In this document: positions 1 to 20,479 of the stretch, in pieces | Position numbering within the stretch: the stretch's first letter is position 1 | How the letters are laid out: every line of letters starts with the position of its first letter | DNA from: Candidatus Bathyarchaeia archaeon | Lineage (GTDB): Archaea; Thermoproteota; Bathyarchaeia; 40CM-2-53-6 | DNA length: 64,000 nucleotides | Assembly (NCBI GenBank): GCA_035935655.1 | Contig: DASYWW010000012.1 | Coordinates: forward strand, 15,618-79,617 | Direction of reading: 5' to 3' | Program-made: the position numbers and the translations under genes | Notes under the pieces: model-generated | Database searches by the model: none | Told to the model about the DNA's origin: nothing | The model's input: the letters and a program-made list of their open reading frames with translations, nothing else

Positions 1-237
1 ACAGTCGACAACGCCATTAGGGACAACCGCTTTTTCGGGCTAGTAATTCAGGACAGCAATAATACGGCTGTCAACAATCGAATCTCGGGGGGAAACGTCG
101 GCGTCGGAGTTGTAGCAGATTTTGCGAACAGCATTGGCACCCTAAGAGACAATACCATCACACTAACATCTGTTGCACCCACACAGGAAATTTCTTGTTG
201 CGGAGTTACAGCAAGAATCCTAATTATTGACAGCTAA
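1..237 (+). CDS. 3' fragment of a parallel beta-helix repeat protein (partial; start lies upstream of the window)
   Basis: Frame 1 is open from base 1 to TAA at 235-237. Translation TVDNAIRDNRFFGLVIQDSNNTAVNNRISGGNVGVGVVADFANSIGTLRDNTITL shows periodic N/D-x-I/V repeats typical of pectate-lyase-like beta-helix surface proteins. Absent from the ORF track because it has no start in the window. Confidence 0.4.
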   Translation, partial: TVDNAIRDNRFFGLVIQDSNNTAVNNRISGGNVGVGVVADFANSIGTLRDNTITLTSVAPTQEISCCGVTARILIIDS

Positions 238-563
238 CACAATTACGGCCTCAGGATAATCGGGTTTACCAAAGTGGGTTACTAAGGATCCGGGCTGATT
301 TTTGGCAATTACTCTCTCCAAACTGAGGGAAAAACTGCCTCCTCTCGGTCTTTGAATCAACCCGAGCTTTGGTGTTTCTCAATAGACGCACCTGTTCACT
401 TGGTTTGATTGTCAGGTTGGCGTCAATGTGTTTCTAGAGGAGTTCTGGGAACGGATCCACAGAGAAGACGGTTGGAAGGTAGCACCTAATGAATGGGTTT
501 CGCGTGACAAGAACGCTTATCTTTCCAAATAACGCATAGCAGGTTAGAACGAACATGAGCCAG

Positions 564-590
564 GAAAACCTGGCACATCAGGTTTCTTTT
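564..590 (+). terminator. Hairpin GAAAACCTG-gcacat-CAGGTTTC followed by TTTT; shares the AAACCTG/CAGGTTT core of the islet hairpin elements
   Basis: Perfect 8-bp inverted repeat with a 6-nt loop and a T4 tract, read directly from the sequence. Lies downstream of the partial beta-helix CDS. Confidence 0.3.
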
Positions 591-687
591 GAAGAGCCAC
601 CCGAACGTTCGGCCAGAAAATTCGGTTCCCGTTACTCTAGTTACCTGTCTGTGAATAGTCCGATAATCGGGTTACGCTACCGCCTAC

Positions 688-797
688 ACTTATGAGTAAG
701 AAGTGACTATGTTTCCGTTGAGATTGCTATGCAACGAAATGCATCTCGAAGTGACTATGGTTCCGTCGGAAATGCTATGCAACGAAATGCAACTTCG
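688..797 (+). repeat. Tandem 48-bp repeat, two units (702-749 and 750-797) plus a 14-nt leader ACTTATGAGTAAGA
   Basis: The units AGTGACTATGTTTCCGTTGAGATTGCTATGCAACGAAATGCATCTCGA and AGTGACTATGGTTCCGTCGGAAATGCTATGCAACGAAATGCAACTTCG are about 85% identical. A third copy with its leader occurs at 4748-4808. Each unit contains a GTTCC-n3-GGAAC palindrome. Confidence 0.8.
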
Positions 798-908
798 TCT
801 TCACCTAGGTTCTATCCAGGCGATAATCCTCGATCATCCGCCGACGACGAGCGATGAGTGTATAACTTATTATACTTGATATTATAAGTATTACCCGTTG
901 GATGGTCT

Positions 909-1184
909 ATGGGATCTAATGTCGTGATAAAGGACGTCGACGAAGCCGCCTACCGTAACTTGAAGGGGGAAGCGGTCAAGGCGGGATTGAAGATAGGAGA
1001 CGCGGCCTCGCAGGCGTTCAGGCTCTGGGTCCAAGAACGATCATTGGGCAGAGTCAAAGACTATGAGAAGATCCGAAAGGCATCAAAGGAAATAGACCAT
1101 CTCAGGGAAGAGATTGGCCGGGTGCCTGGGTTTGATAGTACGAAGGTTATCCGCGAGTGGAGAGATCGCCGAAGACCCTCATAG
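909..1184 (+). CDS. vapB: VapB-like antitoxin (small DNA-binding protein) of TA pair 1
   Basis: 91-aa ORF overlapping the downstream PIN gene by 28 nt. The N-terminus VVIKDVDEAAYRNLKGEAVKAGLKIGDAASQAFRLWV resembles RHH/antitoxin folds. Operon context with VapC. Confidence 0.5.
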   Translation: MGSNVVIKDVDEAAYRNLKGEAVKAGLKIGDAASQAFRLWVQERSLGRVKDYEKIRKASKEIDHLREEIGRVPGFDSTKVIREWRDRRRPS

Positions 1185-1612
1185 TCGACGCGTCCACCGC
1201 GACGGAATGGTTCGTAGAGGAGACTGACTCAGAAAAAGCGGACCTTCTGAAGAAGGCGCATGAGACTGGAAGACTGCAGATAGCCGCCCCAGACCTTCTA
1301 GTGTATGAAGTCTCGAACGCGCTCGTCTACCATCCCAGATTGACCACGGAGGATCTCGCCCAAAGCATTGTTAGACTCTTAGAACTTGACCTGGACCTCA
1401 TCCCGCCGAGAGCAGAATTCGCGGTCGAGACGGCTAAGATCGCCAGAAAGTACGCCGTGTCCGCATACGATGCGAGCTACATTGCCCTGGCGGATATCGT
1501 GGGCACTAACTGCGTCACCGCAGACGAGAAGCTCTACAGGAAACTGCACGGAAAGAAACCGCTCTTCCTCCTCAGCGGGCTGGGCCGCGAATGGAACTTG
1601 CCCAGGGAGTAG
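1157..1612 (+). CDS. vapC: PIN-domain ribonuclease VapC (toxin of pair 1)
   Basis: LIVDASTATEWF...D...YDASYIALA...VTAD acidic quartet pattern of PIN domains; about 150 aa; translationally coupled to the upstream small gene. Confidence 0.8.
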   Translation: MERSPKTLIVDASTATEWFVEETDSEKADLLKKAHETGRLQIAAPDLLVYEVSNALVYHPRLTTEDLAQSIVRLLELDLDLIPPRAEFAVETAKIARKYAVSAYDASYIALADIVGTNCVTADEKLYRKLHGKKPLFLLSGLGREWNLPRE

Positions 1613-1869
1613 GAGTCTTAGAGAAAGACAGGAGTTTCCGGAAAGAAGGCTCCCGTAGTGAGAGCTACCATGTTCGTGATTGGATTCGGAGTTAGTGGGG
1701 GTATCCCGCTAGAACCAATTACTTGTCTCTGCGAGCTACAAAGTTAAAAGGTTGCAAAGGCCTAACCCGTCGGCTTCACTCTTGCCCGCATTCACGGAGG
1801 TCATTCGGCCTTCCCGCTTATGCCGTGGCCTAAATCCTAATATGGGTGATTTGTCACTTGGGTACTTGA

Positions 1870-2136
1870 GTGACGTTGGCTCAGATCAAGATCGTAGCGG
1901 CGGATGATACTATTGACAAGTTCAAGCGGATAGTTTTGGCCAAGCATGGGAAGCTTGAGCTCAGTGCGGAGGGTGAGGAAGCCTTGAGTCTCTACATTAG
2001 GAAGTACGAAGGTCTCCTCGGAAGCATGGTTCCCCCCGACAAGGACCCGCTGAAAGGGATCTGTGGAATCGGAAAGTCCAGCACACGTCATAACGTGCTC
2101 AAGGACCTTGAGCGTCTAGAAGCAGGCGAACTTTGA
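1870..2136 (+). CDS. Putative antitoxin of TA pair 2
   Basis: 88-aa ORF whose stop overlaps the start of the following PIN gene (ATGA-type overlap at 2133-2136). No strong family motif. Confidence 0.45.
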   Translation: MTLAQIKIVAADDTIDKFKRIVLAKHGKLELSAEGEEALSLYIRKYEGLLGSMVPPDKDPLKGICGIGKSSTRHNVLKDLERLEAGEL

Positions 2137-2549
2137 TTTTCATAGATACAACCTTCTGGGTTGGAGACGCTGACACGAACGACGATTTCCACAGCTCGGC
2201 CCACACTGTCATCGAAGCGCTACGAACTGGAAGGACCCCGAGTGGACTGACGACAGACTTCGTCCTAGACGAGACGGTCACTATCTTGGGGAAGAGGAAA
2301 GGTTTCGGAGCAGACAAGGCTGCGAATGTCGCGAAGAGAATAATGACTTCACCAAGGGTCTTCACGGTATATGTCAACGAATCGATGATGAATGAATCGC
2401 TAAAACTCTTCCCAGAGCACAGAGGAAAGCTGAGTTTGACTGATGTGGCGTCCTTGATCGTGATGCGAAAGTACGACGTTAGAAGAATATTCTCTCACGA
2501 TCACGATTTCAACGGCCTGAAAGGTATCGAAAGAAGCGACTCTCTGTAA
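2133..2549 (+). CDS. vapC: PIN-domain ribonuclease VapC (toxin of pair 2)
   Basis: MIFIDTTFWVGDADTNDD...FVLDETVTIL...HDHDFNGL: PIN acidic residues in canonical spacing; 138 aa. Confidence 0.8.
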   Translation: MIFIDTTFWVGDADTNDDFHSSAHTVIEALRTGRTPSGLTTDFVLDETVTILGKRKGFGADKAANVAKRIMTSPRVFTVYVNESMMNESLKLFPEHRGKLSLTDVASLIVMRKYDVRRIFSHDHDFNGLKGIERSDSL

Positions 2550-2596
2550 TCCCTCAGTATGCCTGTCACAACACAAAGACCTAGCCCAATGTAAGG

Positions 2597-2644
2597 TTCA
2601 CGGGCAAACCTGTTGCCAAACGACAGGTTTGTAATACGACTACC
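2597..2644 (+). repeat. Cassette-associated hairpin element, copy A: TTCACGGGCAAACCTGT-n9-ACAGGTTTGTAATACGACTACC
   Basis: 9-bp inverted repeat CAAACCTGT (2605-2613) / ACAGGTTTG (2623-2631), 48 nt after the vapC-2 stop. Conserved flanks GGCAAACCTGT and GGTTTGTA are shared with copies B and C. Confidence 0.75.
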
Positions 2645-3045
2645 ACAGATGGTACGACCCATCAATCGGACGATTCATCAGCCAGGACCCTCTTACCAGC
2701 GATCCTTCGAATCCTCAGAGCCTCAATCCCTATACATATGCCGGTGACTCGCCCACTTCTGCTACTGACCCTAAAGGTCTCGCGACGGCAGGAATCTCCT
2801 CGAGTGTCTCTATAGGATCCTGTCCGTCCTTTTGGAGTAATCCTTAGGGGTCATTCTCATGCCAGCTCAGCCGTACTCCGACGCCAGTAGGAGATGTTAT
2901 CGCTGGCTACGACCTAGCCGTCTGGGGTCTCGCCGAATGCGAGCAGGAATGCGGCTACAGGTTTTACGAACTCGTCCGGGGACCTAGCTCCGGGGAATGA
3001 ATGCTTGTTTGGCTCTACACCCAATAACAGTATGGGGCCTAGAAG

Positions 3046-3255
3046 TTGGTTGTTACTATGGGCGACGATCAAGTGAAGACTGTTGTCGAGAAGCTTGAAG
3101 GTCTTAGATTGGAGCTTCTCAAGATTCGGTCAATGTTATTGACAGACGAGAATCCTTCACCTGAAGAAAGAGAAGAGATTGTCAAGGCTCGGGAAGAGAT
3201 TCGGAAAGGCGAGTCGTTGAGCCTCAAAGCTCTGCTTCAAGAGTTCGGAGAATAG
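3046..3255 (+). CDS. UPF0175-like putative antitoxin
   Basis: 69 aa; the C-terminal REEIRKGESLSLKALLQEFGE resembles the GxISLgkAAEllG tail of UPF0175/COG2886 antitoxin-like proteins. Upstream partner of the DUF2283 gene. Confidence 0.35.
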   Translation: MVVTMGDDQVKTVVEKLEGLRLELLKIRSMLLTDENPSPEEREEIVKAREEIRKGESLSLKALLQEFGE

Positions 3256-3346
3256 GCCCCGCCCCGTCGGGTCAGAAGCACATAATAACTTCCTACTTCA
3301 CATCTCATCCAAAGAAGATCAAGGGAGATGTCGTATCGCGAGCATA

Positions 3347-3532
3347 GTGCTGAAACCTGAGAAGCTCGATGTTGAGTATGACAAAGAGAACGACGTGCTC
3401 TATGTCTCCACTGGTAAGCCGCGAGAAGCGGATGATAGCGTCGAGCCACAGGAAGGAGTTGTCATCCGGACCAGAAAGGGGCAGCTCGTTGGGATCACGA
3501 TCATCGGACTGCACAGCCATCTATCCTCCTGA
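3347..3532 (+). CDS. DUF2283-family small protein (TA-associated)
   Basis: LDVEYDKENDVLYVSTGK...VIRTRKGQLVGITIIG matches the DUF2283 signature (YDxExDxLYI ... GxxVGIEI). Confidence 0.65.
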   Translation: MLKPEKLDVEYDKENDVLYVSTGKPREADDSVEPQEGVVIRTRKGQLVGITIIGLHSHLSS

Positions 3533-3693
3533 TGAAAATCCTACCGCTCGCTGATCTTCAGTAGAGTCTCCTAGGACCAGTTAGACGCACTTTCTGAAAT
3601 TTATCACCAAAAAATATCTTTATTTTCTTCTCTATGATCAGTGATTACACGATAAGACAGGGAGACGTAAACAGCAATAGAGAACCCACAGAT

Positions 3694-3739
3694 TTACGGG
3701 CAAACCTGTAAGTTAGGCGAGAGGTTTGTATTGACTACC
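3694..3739 (+). repeat. Cassette-associated hairpin element, copy B: TTTACGGGCAAACCTGT-n11-AGAGGTTTGTATTGACTACC
   Basis: Same conserved arms as copy A with one mismatch in the right arm; 162 nt after the DUF2283 stop. Confidence 0.7.
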
Positions 3740-3841
3740 GGTGCCACTATGATTCCGGCAACGGGACGGTTCGTTTGCAGTACTCCACTCAGCTCTAAGA
3801 GTCCATAATGGTTAAGTGCATGTATGCACATGCATAGGTGC

Positions 3842-4081
3842 ATGGGCACTAAGACAATATCGCTGGAGGATTCCGCCTACACGAGGTTGAAGGCAGCGAA
3901 GAGACCTGGGGAGAGTTTTTCCGATGCGGTAAATAGGGTGCTGGGCGCAAAAGAGCCCTCCTTCCTGGATTTTCGAGGTCTGCTTCACAGTAGTTCTGCT
4001 GACCGCCTTGCTCAAACGATCGCGCGTATGAAACAAGAGGACATAAGAGCGCAAAGGACGCGAGTCGCCCACAAGTCGTGA
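3842..4081 (+). CDS. vapB: VapB antitoxin (DUF217/VAPB_antitox-like) of TA pair 3
   Basis: From the ATG at 3842, MGTKTISLEDSAYTRLKAAKRPGESFSDAVNRVLG matches the archaeal VapB antitoxin family signature (TISLxDExYxRLKxxKxxxESFSDvI). The track ORF begins at 3824, but the upstream residues look spurious. Confidence 0.7.
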   Translation: MGTKTISLEDSAYTRLKAAKRPGESFSDAVNRVLGAKEPSFLDFRGLLHSSSADRLAQTIARMKQEDIRAQRTRVAHKS

Positions 4082-4085
4082 CCGC

Positions 4086-4487
4086 TTGGGCATCACCATA
4101 GACTCCAATTTCATAATACACCTTCTCCGCTCCGATCCCGCCGCTTTGGCCAAAGCAAAACAGATTGACGATAGTGGCCAGGCAAAGTTTCTAAGCACTC
4201 CTGTTCTTTACGAGATCTCTGCAGGTCTCATTTTCACTGGCTCCAGGACCGAGGCGAGTGCTTTTCGAGCGCTAGCGTCAAGGTTCGGCAGCCTGCCCTT
4301 CGATGAAGCCGCGGCTGTTAGGGCGGCTGAGATCAGAGCTGAACTATTGCGCTTAGGAAGAGCGAAGAGCCATGTGGACATAATGATCGCAGGAATCGCA
4401 CTCGAAGGCTCTCATGCGCTAGTCACTAGGGATCGTGATTTCGAGGAGATCGCCGAAACTTTAGGTCTAAATGTAGAGACTTATTGA
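4086..4487 (+). CDS. vapC: PIN-domain ribonuclease VapC (toxin of pair 3)
   Basis: TTG start at 4086; ITIDSNFIIHLL...D...YEISAG...VDIMIAGIALEGSHALVTRDRDFEEI: PIN residues; 133 aa; directly follows vapB. Confidence 0.8.
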   Translation: MGITIDSNFIIHLLRSDPAALAKAKQIDDSGQAKFLSTPVLYEISAGLIFTGSRTEASAFRALASRFGSLPFDEAAAVRAAEIRAELLRLGRAKSHVDIMIAGIALEGSHALVTRDRDFEEIAETLGLNVETY

Positions 4488-4548
4488 AAGCTCCACGTAT
4501 TCTCCCAGTCTGGCGCGGGTCGAGACAGCATAGGTTGAAACCTACATG

Positions 4549-4592
4549 TTTACAGGCAAACCTGTTAGCGAAACGACAGGTTTGTACTCTCC
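4549..4592 (+). repeat. Cassette-associated hairpin element, copy C: TTTACAGGCAAACCTGT-n10-ACAGGTTTGTACTCTCC
   Basis: Perfect 9-bp inverted repeat CAAACCTGT/ACAGGTTTG, 62 nt after the vapC-3 stop. Confidence 0.75.
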
Positions 4593-4747
4593 ATTCCGGT
4601 TGAGACACTTTACGCGACGATCTCGATTTCTTTGGCAGATGCTACCTGTTTGGCACCAAACTGGAAGGGCGAGAATTGACTAGGGAATTTCCGGAAAGAA
4701 GAAGAAGAAGAATGAAGATCAGCTTCTAATTGCGTTTACCGGCTAGA

Positions 4748-4808
4748 CTTATCAGTCAGAAGTGGCTATTGTTCCGTTGGAAACGCTATGCAACGAAATG
4801 CATCTCCA
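4748..4808 (+). repeat. Third copy of the 48-bp repeat plus leader (ACTTATCAGTCAGA-AGTGGCTATTGTTCCGTTGGAAACGCTATGCAACGAAATGCATCTCCA)
   Basis: Aligns with 688-749 at about 85% identity. Forms a direct repeat bracketing the TA islet. Confidence 0.8.
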
Positions 4809-5473
4809 CTGAAATCGGGCATAGCCCAGAGAATGCACAAGGTGCCATGATCGATGTTTGTGGAATCCACAATCTCCCCTTGGTTATCAATGGAATTCTC
4901 AGGAGAAAACAGAGGTAATTAGGTGGAAACCATCGGCGTCCTTTTTATCAGCAGCGGAAGCGATATTCGTATTGATACCTTATGGAAAGGAGCGAGACCA
5001 CGGTCTCCCAACCTCAAGGATCGCACGCAATCGAACCGCGGGACGCTTTTATTGAAGCCGTCCTCGCTAGCCGGATCCTGATAATTCTGATCCGGTAGTC
5101 CCAGCAGAATAAACTGAGCAAACTGCTTTCAGAGTCGAGCTGATTCCCAGTGGAACAAGAGGAACAACGATACCGCTTCGACTCGATTTTGCTTATGAAA
5201 ACATAGTTGGAAAAAAAGGCACACAGGACGCCACAAGAATTACTAGCGAATTCGCCCAAAATCAACCCTGATCTCGAATCCATCTCCCCACCCTAGATCT
5301 CGCCTGGAAGTCGTTCGCCGATAGTTAGAATAAATCCAGCAAACGCGTCCATCTAAGGCCGTGTTGCGCCTTGAATCGCATGTCTCGGGCGGAATCAGGG
5401 CCATGCAGGAAGTCTCCTAAGAGAAAGGGGGGTTATTAGCGATGGGGTCTCACGACGCAAGAGTGGTCGGGAG

Positions 5474-5824
5474 CTAGTCCGACCATTTCGAAGCCGAGAC
5501 TATCGGAATCAGGGTTTCCGTGTCGGTGACATCCCCGATTGCTTTGATACGATCAACTATGAACCAGTAGATGCTCTGAGCATCAGGCTCTAGAAGTTTT
5601 CTAGGAACCTCGACAACTGCCATAATGTCGTGCCTTCCCGGAATAACGTGAACCTCCTTGACCTCCGCAAGTTTGAACAGTGCGTCGGCGACCTTCGACT
5701 CTTTACCCAAGACTGCAGCCACATAGATGAAAGCACGAACATGTCTCTTCATTTCGCCCCTTGGATGATAATGAGCCTCAACCAATTTCAGATATCCCTG
5801 AAATCGCGCCTTTGGCAACTCCAT
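5474..5824 (-). CDS. Stand-alone Lrp/AsnC-type ligand-binding (RAM) domain protein; probable true start at the internal M (5752)
   Basis: HVRAFIYVAAVLGKE...VADALFKLAEVKEVHVIPGRHDIMAVVEV...IVDRIKAIGDVTDTETLI follows the RAM-domain pattern. There is no HTH N-terminal to it. Confidence 0.45.
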   Translation of the reverse strand: MELPKARFQGYLKLVEAHYHPRGEMKRHVRAFIYVAAVLGKESKVADALFKLAEVKEVHVIPGRHDIMAVVEVPRKLLEPDAQSIYWFIVDRIKAIGDVTDTETLIPIVSASKWSD

Positions 5825-5999
5825 ATAACCCCTTGGACAAAGGTCACATCAAGTCAGCGCTGAGCTAGATTCGTTAGTCGACATGCCGATAAAAGCGGGG
5901 TCGATGCAGTTACGAGCCGAGCCAGGGACCGGTATCGTAGAAATGATTAGGCTTCCTCTTAGAGACCGGTAACATAGGTTAGCCTAGCGAGAGCAAGTT

Positions 6000-7349
6000 T
6001 TGACCCTACCAGAGCAGAAATCTAGATTCTATGTCCCTAGCTCAATCAGACTGCTCCTTTCTCCGGGGGTCCGAGGACACACACTAATCTTCACCACACT
6101 CATGGCGTTCTTATTCGCAACCGCGTACGTTGGCGCGACGCTCGGCTTTGCACAAGCGTGGACGATCATCTTCATCGCGGGCGCAAGTACGACGGGAGTA
6201 TACCTGGTTCTCACCCCATTCGCTTTACTAGAAAAATTCAGAAGTCCAATTCTGTTCTCCAGAATGACCAGACGTGTCATCATACTCGTAATAGCATACG
6301 CGCCTATGATCGCCGGCATCGCGTACTGGATCCAACAGGCAGGATCTGTAGAAGCACTCCCAATATTCCCCGCGTTCATCATTATCTTCTACACGTGGAT
6401 TCTTCTTCAAGCCTACTTCATCGCCACACCTGTTTCCCAGCTCCTCGTCAAAGTAGAGAGAGGCCTAACGGGTGAAGGAAACGCGAGGAAGTTAATGAGG
6501 ACCCTCGGAATATCAACACTCTTCCTCCCCATCGCACCACTGACCTACGGAACATGGGCAATTTCAAACTGGCTAAGCGCGACCTACCGGAACGTTCAGG
6601 GCGCAACCGACAAGATAATCATCTGGACAATGATCGTGACGGTACTCCTCCTCGCAACCTACTTCTTCACCGCACTCTGGGGATGGAGGGTAATAGTACA
6701 GAAAAAACCACAAGCAGCGGTTTTCGCTGGCGGAACTTTTCTAGTTCTCTGGGGTTACCTACTATACCGAGCGACAACCATCGCGATCGGTTACATTACT
6801 CAAGACCAGCCATCAAATCCCCTTGCCGATAGCGGGTTGATGATAATATCTGTTATCGGCGCGATGCAGACGTTCGCAAGGAAGACGGCAAACCACCCCG
6901 ACAGACGTTTGAGCCGAATCCTACCCTTCTTAGTATTCGCCTTCGGCTCCGTCTACGCGGTCGCACAATTCTACTTTATCCTACGAGTACCAATAACCAG
7001 AATCGATCTCTCGATCATTGTTAACGCCACGGTATTCGCAGCTGGAATTTTCACAATGATGTTCCTTATACGAAGACATCTCGTGGCGGTAGAGTTGAAC
7101 GCTTACAAGGCCAAGATGGCCGGCCAAAACCCTAACGAGCCTTCCGGTGAGACCACGAGGCCCCATCGCTCATTATTCCGACTTCCGTGGAAGAAAGCGG
7201 CCGGAGCACCCGAACCCCAGCTGGAACAGCGGACAGATGAAACGCCTCAGAACGAATCAGTTCCCGAGCAGAATGAATCAGTTGCAGAGCCTGACGATAC
7301 AGTCGCCCAGCCAGCAGAAGAGGGTACAGACCCAGACCAGGATTACTAG
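6000..7349 (+). CDS. Polytopic membrane protein (about 10 predicted TM helices) with acidic repetitive C-terminal tail; function unknown
   Basis: Hydrophobic segments throughout; tail PQNESVPEQNESVAEPDDTVAQPAEEGTDPDQDY. Confidence 0.6.
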   Translation: MTLPEQKSRFYVPSSIRLLLSPGVRGHTLIFTTLMAFLFATAYVGATLGFAQAWTIIFIAGASTTGVYLVLTPFALLEKFRSPILFSRMTRRVIILVIAYAPMIAGIAYWIQQAGSVEALPIFPAFIIIFYTWILLQAYFIATPVSQLLVKVERGLTGEGNARKLMRTLGISTLFLPIAPLTYGTWAISNWLSATYRNVQGATDKIIIWTMIVTVLLLATYFFTALWGWRVIVQKKPQAAVFAGGTFLVLWGYLLYRATTIAIGYITQDQPSNPLADSGLMIISVIGAMQTFARKTANHPDRRLSRILPFLVFAFGSVYAVAQFYFILRVPITRIDLSIIVNATVFAAGIFTMMFLIRRHLVAVELNAYKAKMAGQNPNEPSGETTRPHRSLFRLPWKKAAGAPEPQLEQRTDETPQNESVPEQNESVAEPDDTVAQPAEEGTDPDQDY

Positions 7350-20356: not shown

Positions 20357-20479
20357 GCGGCCGTGGTCCAGAGTCAGCGCTCAACTGCGAGGTTGACGGG
20401 CAGCCTGGTCTATGACACCGGCTTCCCATTACCATGGAAAGAGCCGGGAACCCGGGTTCGAATCCCGGCGGCCGCACCA
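20357..20479 (+). tRNA. tRNA-Gly(CCC) requiring two introns: about 33 nt in the D-arm (non-canonical position) and 13 nt after position 37; CCA encoded
   Basis: Acceptor GCGGCCG/CGGCCGC. T-arm CCGGG-TTCGAAT-CCCGG. Discriminator A then CCA (20476-20479). Anticodon arm CCGGC-TTCCCA[ttaccatggaaag]A-GCCGG. A D-arm GTCA-GCCTGGTCTA-TGAC is obtained only if 20369-20401 is removed. The spliced product is 77 nt. Confidence 0.55.

Follow-up and report, generated by a model that had tools for sequence, protein, structure and literature searches.

A toxin-antitoxin islet in a Bathyarchaeia archaeon as the probable remains of a decayed Rhs tip-cassette array

The stretch of DNA analysed here, referred to throughout as the window, is 64,000 nucleotides (nt) of contig DASYWW010000012.1 from a Candidatus Bathyarchaeia archaeon, and its first 5 kb contain an islet of small toxin-antitoxin (TA) gene pairs punctuated by three copies of a hairpin-like element. 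We find that this element is a 33-nt coding stretch of the Rhs-associated core, here called the block, and is neither an attC site nor a terminator. The best explanation of the whole, to which we give a probability of about 0.7, is that the islet is a headless and decayed array of Rhs (YD-repeat) tip cassettes in a soil archaeon of the Bathyarchaeota type, built from cassettes that were stacked at their blocks. That it descends from a decayed Rhs tip array of some kind is very probable. The window is a fossil, having no Rhs core, no integrase and no intact tip.

The repeated element as Rhs coding sequence

The consensus of the block is GGC AAA CCT GTN AGC CAA ACG ACA GGT TTG TAC, which encodes GKPVSQTTGLY of the Rhs-associated core domain. 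It has dyad symmetry because the GKP codons (GGCAAACCT) oppose the TGL codons (ACAGGTTTG): the reverse complement of GGC-AAA-CCT is AGG-TTT-GCC, a near match to ACA-GGT-TTG. A scan for the exact pattern in one genome per species matched 12 stretches, eight of them in metagenome-assembled genomes (MAGs) of soil Bathyarchaeota, one in a MAG labelled only "bacterium" (L009; L numbers designate related loci) and three in bacterial genomes, these last probably coincidental. Around the archaeal matches conservation is codon-like, in the frame ..ETYKFTGKPVSQTTGLYYYGARWYDPxIGRFISQDP... In the eight Bathyarchaeota stretches, and in the soil metagenome contigs listed by a pattern search (at least 120), the element nearly always reads FTGKPVSxTTGLY followed by YYxxRWYDPxIGRFISxDP. 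The open frames around it extend over at least 579 residues in L003, 1345 in L006 and 1478 in L008. L003 and L008, the two frames scanned, contain RHS_repeat, YD_repeat and Rhs_assc_core domains, and around 20 block copies lie inside open frames of more than 1000 residues with these same domains. The pattern had no match in IMG/VR viral contigs.

Within the window, an exact search for GGCAAACCTGT gives three occurrences, starting at 2603, 3699 and 4555 and all on the + strand; the full two-armed pattern, GGCAAACCTGT-n-AGGTTTGTA, is observed two to three times, against 0.00-0.01 expected. The copies are co-oriented, and each is downstream of a small TA-like gene pair, with the preceding stop codon 48, 162 and 62 nt away, in agreement with a first-pass annotation that had placed three hairpins 48-162 nt behind such pairs. 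When the Rhs proteins of L003, L006 and L008 were compared to the window using tblastn, they matched at the three hairpin sites only. The best preserved is copy 1, where 2575-2781 matches all three Rhs genes with E values of 1e-17 to 2e-21. This is a pseudogene, with a 1-nt deletion (in the spacer between the arms of the block) and in-frame stops at about 2632 and 2845. With the frameshift and stop repaired, 2575-2856 scores 61 bits against TIGR03696 (cutoff 32.5), and it ends in PTSATDPKGL, a cleavage-type motif of the form PxxxxDPxGL. Homology then runs on to 2955 as a truncated tip, which across 122 residues is 79% identical in amino acids to a genuine L077 tip. Copy 2 reads RFTGKPVS*ARGLY*..YDYRCHYDSGNGRF, where asterisks are stops. 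In copy 3 the Rhs codons are limited to ETYMFTGKPVSETTGLY and the right flank is not Rhs, so that copy 3 marks where the array ends distally; L008 and L119 likewise have terminal blocks with non-Rhs sequence behind them. A tblastn search gave no significant match to an Rhs core gene anywhere in the 64 kb, the core being present in the relatives L003, L008, L134 and L135, and the array in the window is therefore headless.

The islet thus runs from direct repeats through VapBC1, VapBC2, block 1 with its pseudo-tip, a pair of genes for a 69-residue and a DUF2283 protein, block 2 with its relic, VapBC3 and block 3 to a further direct repeat. Its features, with the short hairpin on its left, are as follows:

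566-585, +: short hairpin AAACCTG-n6-CAGGTTT, then CTTTT (pattern expected 0.00 times)
678-795, +: direct repeat at the left islet edge, in two overlapping tandem copies, 678-747 and 726-795 (48-nt period)
909-1612, +: VapBC-like pair 1, a 91-residue upstream gene and a 151-residue PIN toxin, overlapping by 28 nt
1854-2549, +: VapBC-like pair 2 with upstream leader, an 88-residue gene and a 138-residue weak PIN
2575-2955, +: Rhs core-end pseudogene and truncated toxin tip (tblastn, TIGR03696), with block copy 1 at 2603-2633
2992-3532, +: small gene pair, a 69-residue protein without family (3046-3255) and a 61-residue DUF2283 protein (3347-3532)
3684-3775, +: block copy 2 (3699-3730, stem degraded) and about 25 heavily decayed codons of the Rhs core end, including stops and frameshifts
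3776-4536, +: VapBC3 unit, with TGCATG operator-like repeats, VapB (3824-4081), PIN toxin (4086-4487) and a degenerate Rhs-derived leader
4537-4588, +: block copy 3 (4555-4586), preceded by six Rhs-type codons (tblastn E 0.002)
4737-4806, +: third copy of the direct repeat, about 70 nt and 84% identical, at the right islet edge

A different reading of the element, offered by the first-pass annotation as its alternative, is a regulatory RNA or DNA element shared by the TA operons, such as an intrinsic terminator, an operator or a processing hairpin. The position behind each gene pair and the capacity to form a stem would suit this. Copies 1 and 3 do fold into stems of 11-12 bp (z about -3 and -2.6), but the stem that was ascribed to all three is partly lost in copy 2, where pairing is limited to CAAACCT/AGGTTTG and the minimum-energy structure is a different one (z -1.2). 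Variant block copies show one compensatory change in the stem against 53 broken pairs, and with no covariation a structured RNA was rejected. A T-tract is missing from all three copies, and a terminator scan called none of them. Rfam, searched at gathering thresholds over the whole window and at E<=10 over 1-6000, returned nothing for the hairpin or the direct repeats, only chance-level SNORD59 and JUMPstart. Most of the copies in relatives lie inside long open reading frames (ORFs) or beside integrases, not after TA genes. It had also been proposed to count the element, abundance throughout the genome being what one would expect of a generic terminator or a repetitive extragenic palindromic (REP) sequence. 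No copy occurs outside the islet in 64 kb, the copies are absent from terminator-like sites, and in the relatives the element is confined to Rhs arrays. A regulatory element is scarcely credible on this evidence.

Block arrays and cassette integrases in relatives

Fuzzy detection identified 194 blocks in 129 related loci, co-oriented within every contig and with a median spacing of 1.9 kb. Two to five blocks are present in 52 of the 129 loci, and overall the arrays in relatives have 2-7 blocks, with variable tips of 250-300 residues and, after the tips, small ORFs that are predicted immunity genes. The features found immediately upstream of a block are:

Rhs core: 49 blocks
opposite-strand integrase: 33 blocks
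+ strand ORF: 71 blocks
minus-strand ORF: 20 blocks

The order in intact relatives is Rhs core, block, new tip, immunity gene, opposite-strand tyrosine recombinase, 72-nt spacer, block and displaced older tip, and every cassette carries its own copy of the recombinase. The relatives have what characterises an Rhs locus, namely a variable tip together with orphan tips that start with core fragments; of this the window keeps one truncated tip and two shorter relics. The first-pass annotation was right that the element is conserved independently of its neighbour genes, and it recurs, co-oriented, in variable arrays. Its proposal of a recombination site for mobile cassettes stands insofar as the block is, in relatives, the junction of stacked cassettes and is tied to a tyrosine recombinase; it fails as to the kind of site, which is Rhs coding sequence and not attC or any other part of an integron. 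It is best read as a site at which stacked mobile cassettes join or recombine.

In the largest array seen, L135 3500-16250 (JGI Ga0633489_0000003, 327 kb), an Rhs gene of more than 2500 residues precedes seven blocks that share one orientation within 13 kb. Two integrases there each adjoin a block, and the contig also has a third integrase cluster mapped to it. L009 (JAJPJY010000012.1, Centralia MAG 577), labelled "bacterium", has its Rhs gene, tip, integrase and block arranged as in the Bathyarchaeota contigs, and is either a mis-binned or mis-labelled contig or a case of cross-domain transfer. In L024, L027, L040, L055, L062, L068 (4648), L079, L085, L100, L118, L121 and L129 the block is followed by a recurrent ..YYYGSRWQTPSGTLTDYYAGTLRIASVF.. 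junction, which looks like a restart of the Rhs segment normally upstream of the block, that is, a permuted or partly duplicated core end. It is worth adding that in L006 a gene for a GmrSD-type restriction endonuclease (3736-5223 in locus coordinates) lies directly downstream of the Rhs array; defence genes cluster with these arrays.

The integrase was characterised from L008, where a 369-residue Phage_integrase ORF lies between the tip/immunity region of the main gene and the second block, a layout repeated in L009 with an integrase that is 67% identical. A tblastn search with the L008 protein gave matches in 39 of the 129 loci, on the opposite strand. The start of the block is exactly 72 nt from the integrase start codon at 22 of 33 integrase 5' ends, the integrases at these ends being 43-100% identical. 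The distance is 90 nt in two others and 70 and 141 nt in one each, and seven have no block within 400 nt; those of the seven that were examined have a contig end or a TA insertion there. The spacer between integrase and block is conserved (TTGTATTTAGCTCGGACAGGTCAGGTGACAGGTTTACG, then the block), and contains extra direct copies of ACAGGT(TT) beside the inverted ACAGGTTT arms of the block.

Against PF00589 the integrase scores 27.2 bits, which is borderline (cutoff 27.1), and this family is precomputed for most of the 120 homologue clusters listed out of 130 found. Against the XerA / integron-integrase model it scores 31-37 bits (cutoff 220; E 2e-9). Residues R157, H254, R257 and Y289 are invariant in 42 sequences. 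The predicted fold (predicted local distance difference test score, pLDDT, 83) was matched by Foldseek to XerA (1.3e-6), XerH, IntI (VchIntIA), Cre and lambda Int, the best structural matches being archaeal XerA; PDB sequences gave no match, either with the single sequence or with an 8-sequence profile. The catalytic domain, the R-H-R-Y residues and the modelled fold thus all indicate a tyrosine recombinase, and we take the cassette integrase to be a divergent Xer-like member of the family, with a predicted two-domain Xer/Cre-like fold. The first-pass annotation had suggested looking for an IntI-like recombinase in the surroundings: no homologue of the integrase is present in the 64-kb window, and the one beside the block in relatives is Xer-like, not IntI.

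Sampling that began from the integrase, and is therefore independent of the DNA pattern, reached three contexts. Two of these are Rhs arrays with an adjoining block (L134 and L135), one in a 1.05-Mb Bathyarchaeia contig and the other in the 327-kb contig with seven blocks in 13 kb. In the third, a relative with 49% identity belongs to an ordinary Prim-Pol integrative element (L136 8067-9101 and L137 189-1223, where the element includes Prim-Pol and PadR genes and neither an Rhs gene nor a block is close by), which suggests that the cassette integrases derive from those of ordinary archaeal integrative elements.

Constraint on the block at the level of DNA was assessed in 69 unique intact copies, excluding the 20 positions fixed by the search pattern. 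The unfixed third codon positions within the block have conservation of 0.99 (AGC), 0.94 (CAA) and 0.91 (ACG), compared with 0.45-0.65 for the third positions of flanking residues that are equally invariant (F-2, T-1, Y17, D18, P19, G22 and R23), and conservation at synonymous sites drops sharply at both edges of the block.

Displacement of tips can be followed by comparing contigs. In three pairs the same tip is fused to the Rhs core in one contig and lies behind an integrase-adjacent block in the other (L106/L068, 99.5%; L015/L035; L026/L120), and the left flanks are unrelated until about 10 nt before the block. A matching junction is seen between L119 and L008, where the block is terminal, lacks a tip and gives way to host DNA. 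Within the pairs L032/L110 and L112/L123, identity is 100% for the integrase and the cargo to its left and 93-96% for the right-hand tip, as fits a cassette made up of tip, immunity gene and integrase having been inserted ahead of an older tip. These are the two contig pairs in which cargo differs between left and right, and in both it is the left cargo, a tip with its immunity gene, that goes along with the integrase, informative pairs being few. L032 and L112 do not count as independent insertions: that possibility was rejected, as they represent one cassette family at 86% identity.

Toxin-antitoxin modules and the integron comparison

The families of the gene pairs in the window bear out the four two-gene modules of the first-pass annotation in part. 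Matches to Pfam/NCBIfam models were obtained for the toxin of pair 1 (1157-1612, PIN, E 3.5e-9), for both genes of VapBC3 (VapB at 3824-4081, E 3e-14; PIN at 4086-4487, E 1.4e-15) and for the DUF2283 protein (3347-3532, E 2e-10), and weakly for the toxin of pair 2 (2133-2549, PIN, TIGR00028, E 0.003). The three partner ORFs at 909-1184, 1870-2136 and 3046-3255 match no family, and a UPF0175-like label given to the last of these found no support. Pairs 1 and 3 can thus be assigned to type II VapBC by their PIN domains and by VapB3, the toxins being predicted ones. The three PIN proteins have no mutual similarity by BLASTP, as had been claimed.

Several of these genes have relatives near blocks elsewhere. 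PIN genes 32-34% identical to VapC1 lie 84 nt (L091) and 329 nt (L113) upstream of blocks. The leader of pair 2 (1854-1982) is 84% identical to L077 5487-5620, a region that starts 54 nt past an L077 block, and homologues of the 69-residue protein in L100 and L082 (68-71% identical) lie about 400 nt upstream of blocks. More generally, the family met most often immediately upstream of an orphan block is PIN (6 of 26 representative proteins), and the distance from PIN stop codon to block is constant per family, at 55, 71 and 26 nt.

The VapBC3 unit has 78-81% DNA identity with L037, L070, L073 and L109, with the homology stopping at the block (4588). In L070 and L037 it is flanked on one side by the block and on the other by what is left of an integrase 5' end with its spacer (broken at ..GTGAC), and L026 has an unrelated VapBC between integrase and block. 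The window, L100 and L114 have the same VapBC3 unit, the preceding tip, immunity gene and integrase being deleted with end points that differ. The simplest reading is that TA modules ride in the cassettes between integrase and block and outlast their decay; the pairs probably persist because their loss is counter-selected. The TA pairs had been taken for the cargo of the cassettes, but the primary cargo is the Rhs toxin tip with its immunity gene.

Two further observations concern these modules. An operator-like nest of TGCATG palindromes (GTGCATGTATGCACATGCATAGGTGCATG) at 3808-3845, reaching into the start of VapB3, is kept in L037, L070, L100 and L114. A locus consisting of a 149-residue PIN gene, 18-28 nt, a block that ends right after TGL, and a ribbon-helix-helix gene recurs in L005, L047, L061, L066, L071, L088, L106, L121, L126 and L131; this is a decayed junction that has spread to, or persisted in, many contigs.

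An integron-like platform that shuffles TA cassettes at attC-like hairpins, the idea favoured by the first-pass annotation, has to be weighed against this, together with its weaker form in which TA-plus-block units without an integrase are mobilised in trans. Unrelated VapBC pairs do lie directly upstream of blocks at family-constant distances, the VapBC3 homology stops exactly at the block in five contigs, and in L082 five blocks are parted by small gene pairs. Chromosomal integrons with TA cassettes are likewise co-oriented arrays punctuated by an imperfect palindrome, with TA modules interspersed that are thought to stabilise the array. However, there is no IntI, the integrase reaching no more than 37 bits on a model with a cutoff of 220, and the element contains no R''/R' cores; the annotation itself had remarked on the absence of canonical attC cores (RYYYAAC...GTTRRRY), and the sequence bears this out. 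What is conserved in the block is its sequence and not its structure, with the stem showing broken pairs in place of covariation, and the site is coding sequence within intact genes. The left junction of VapBC3 is not at a block: it falls within the spacer of an integrase, or at points that vary along a decayed tip, and looks like deletion and not like the insertion of a cassette. Unlike integrons, the arrays lack attI, Pc and a folded single-strand substrate, and their TA pairs have operator-like leaders of their own. We therefore consider an integron-like platform very improbable in either form.

Closer in some respects are the rAID-1 / XerC/D-adjacent polyimmunity loci (PMC3482391), recombinase-linked arrays that their authors called "reminiscent of integrons". 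They share with the cassettes an Xer-family recombinase, co-oriented small polymorphic-toxin genes and a repeated motif between genes, and the co-oriented small genes and the motif are seen here too. In rAID, however, one XerD-like recombinase stands at the 5' end of the array, the cargo is two or more low-GC orphan immunity genes and the motif is intergenic, whereas here each cassette has a recombinase of its own and transports a tip and its immunity gene, sometimes together with a TA module, and the motif belongs to the coding sequence of the toxin gene. Compared by family models only, the two systems have no detectable sequence relationship. The G+C content of the islet is not skewed relative to its surroundings.

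Some features of the window stand apart from the blocks. The direct repeats that the first-pass annotation placed at the islet edges exist, as three copies of about 70 nt (678-747, 726-795 and 4737-4806), and so does the short hairpin at 566-585, which shares its arms with the block. The repeats have no match in the related loci, and the hairpin has no counterpart of its form in 137 of them and no similarity to the block beyond the arms, so the relatives give no support to either as a boundary of the region. Smith-Waterman scans of 1-6000, including the gap between VapBC1 and VapBC2 (1613-1869), revealed no further degenerate blocks, and no synteny was found between the flanks of the window and the related loci. 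An 18-nt repeat, GGARTTTCCGGAAAGAAG (17/18 identical), occurs at 1631-1648 and 4684-4701, that is, 19 nt past the VapC1 stop and 98 nt past block 3, and has no counterpart elsewhere; it could be a trace of shared ancestry of the two intergenic stretches, or chance. Further away, a 21-nt tandem repeat at 7248-7289 codes for repeated QNESVxE in the C-terminal part of a 449-residue membrane-protein ORF (6000-7349). A tRNA was identified by Rfam at 20357-20476 on the + strand (40.9 bits) and missed by ARAGORN in bacterial mode; at 120 nt it contains an intron, consistent with an archaeal genome. A tRNA fragment as att site was considered for the islet and rejected, as ARAGORN finds none and the sole Rfam tRNA is this distant one.

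Site-specific or homologous recombination at the block

How the arrays grew is a separate matter. For the block being the recombination site of the integrase we see roughly even odds. In the likeliest mechanism, a circular cassette with one block would recombine at the block of a resident Rhs gene by means of its own Xer-like recombinase, with the inverted ACAGGTTT arms of the block and the extra direct ACAGGT copies in the spacer as candidate binding sites. The new toxin tip would thereby be fused in frame and the old tip pushed downstream. Some cassettes also have a VapBC module, placed after the recombinase and before the block. Deletions in the window would then have removed the Rhs core, the immunity genes, the recombinases and all tips except a 360-nt pseudogene, leaving the junction blocks and TA pairs. 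Put in its fullest form, with the 33-bp block as a recombinase core site lying in the Rhs frame and the units of about 3 kb as autonomous mini-integrative elements that re-arm Rhs by in-frame insertion, the proposal is tentative and falls slightly short of an even chance. An extension can be made to TA-plus-block units that have no integrase and are movable in trans, which would amount to an integron-like platform without IntI or attC.

The main competitor is classical displacement of Rhs C-termini by homologous recombination only. The block would then be the best-conserved end of the core, used as homology for RecA/RadA-type exchange, and the integrase would be a passenger, or would move the cassette between genomes without acting on the block. 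Such a model has been published for enterobacterial rhs, in which the C-terminal swap was explained by hypothetical homologous recombination with circular tip intermediates, the authors stating that no integrase was known alongside Rhs (PMC2935791). This model is still the only explanation on offer for the exchange of C-terminal toxin domains in Rhs and other polymorphic toxins. It accommodates orphans that have longer Rhs core fragments and no integrase (e.g. L119 3565-3795), and also mosaic boundaries that vary and lie outside the block. It does not, however, account for the 72-nt spacing being kept across integrases just 43% identical, for the sharp fall of synonymous-site conservation at both edges of the block, or for the extra ACAGGT repeats in the spacer. 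Furthermore, an identity tract of 33 nt is short for efficient homologous recombination. Homologous recombination as the only process therefore seems unlikely to us.

Several points nevertheless weigh against site-specific insertion at the block, or against the wider account of the islet. The mechanism is transferred entirely from relatives, the window itself having neither integrase nor Rhs core. The collection of blocks was gathered with a pattern that fixes 20 of 32 block positions, so that the unbiased nucleotide evidence comes from the 12 spacer positions only. The mosaic boundary in pairs with a shared tip varies, being 10-40 nt to the right of the block, and in L032 compared to L112 it is about 95 nt to the left. 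Such boundaries suit gene conversion or homologous recombination more than they suit a single clean crossover within the block, and imply that homologous exchange also acts, or acts instead. The arms of the block are 10-12 nt apart, and the overlap in Xer- or Cre-type sites is usually shorter, at 6-8 bp. A search for circular contigs as excised cassettes found none, and no recombination product or circular junction was observed. Finally, the direct repeats that bracket the islet are left unexplained by an Rhs array.

Among known systems, the arrays most resemble those of Rhs C-terminal displacement with orphan rhs-CT/immunity modules (CT, C-terminal) (Jackson et al. 2009, PMC2935791; Koskiniemi et al. 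2014, PMC3967940; Steele et al. 2017, PMC5727410). In both, dissociated tips that start with a core-end fragment stand co-oriented behind a full-length Rhs gene, older tips are moved downstream, and relics turned into pseudogenes are frequent. The arrays described here differ in that a tyrosine recombinase belongs to each cassette, its start codon a fixed 72 nt from the block, in that the part of the core retained is a 33-nt block with sharp limits and conservation at the nucleotide level, and in having archaeal hosts and VapBC modules embedded in the cassettes. Integrase-like genes near the Rhs loci of bee-gut bacteria were reported later, with their role unstated. In the literature, incompletely covered, we saw no account of Rhs genes whose cassettes each have an integrase at a fixed distance from an in-frame site, nor of Rhs arrays from Bathyarchaeota. 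A second likeness is to integrative elements that insert inside a gene and whose attP holds the 3' part of that gene (tRNA-targeting integrases of archaea and bacteria; integration-dependent systems, PMC9934374), where the frame is regenerated from element sequence, the displaced 3' part is found at the far junction and the integrase lies beside att. Here, by contrast, the regenerated 3' part is different, being a new toxin domain, so that integration alters the protein, and the elements are only about 3 kb.

As a practical warning, conserved palindromes between small genes may be relics of coding sequence. The block and the integrase are defined well enough as substrates for direct testing in vitro. 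If the proposal is true, the mini-elements would supply, in Archaea, the machinery for circular intermediates that the C-terminal displacement model has wanted since 2009. Polymorphic-toxin systems have been reported to be rare in Archaea (PMC3482391), and the soil Bathyarchaeota family adds a sizeable one. Should the block be the recombinase site, toxin re-arming in these archaea would be a programmed, site-specific, in-frame gene fusion.

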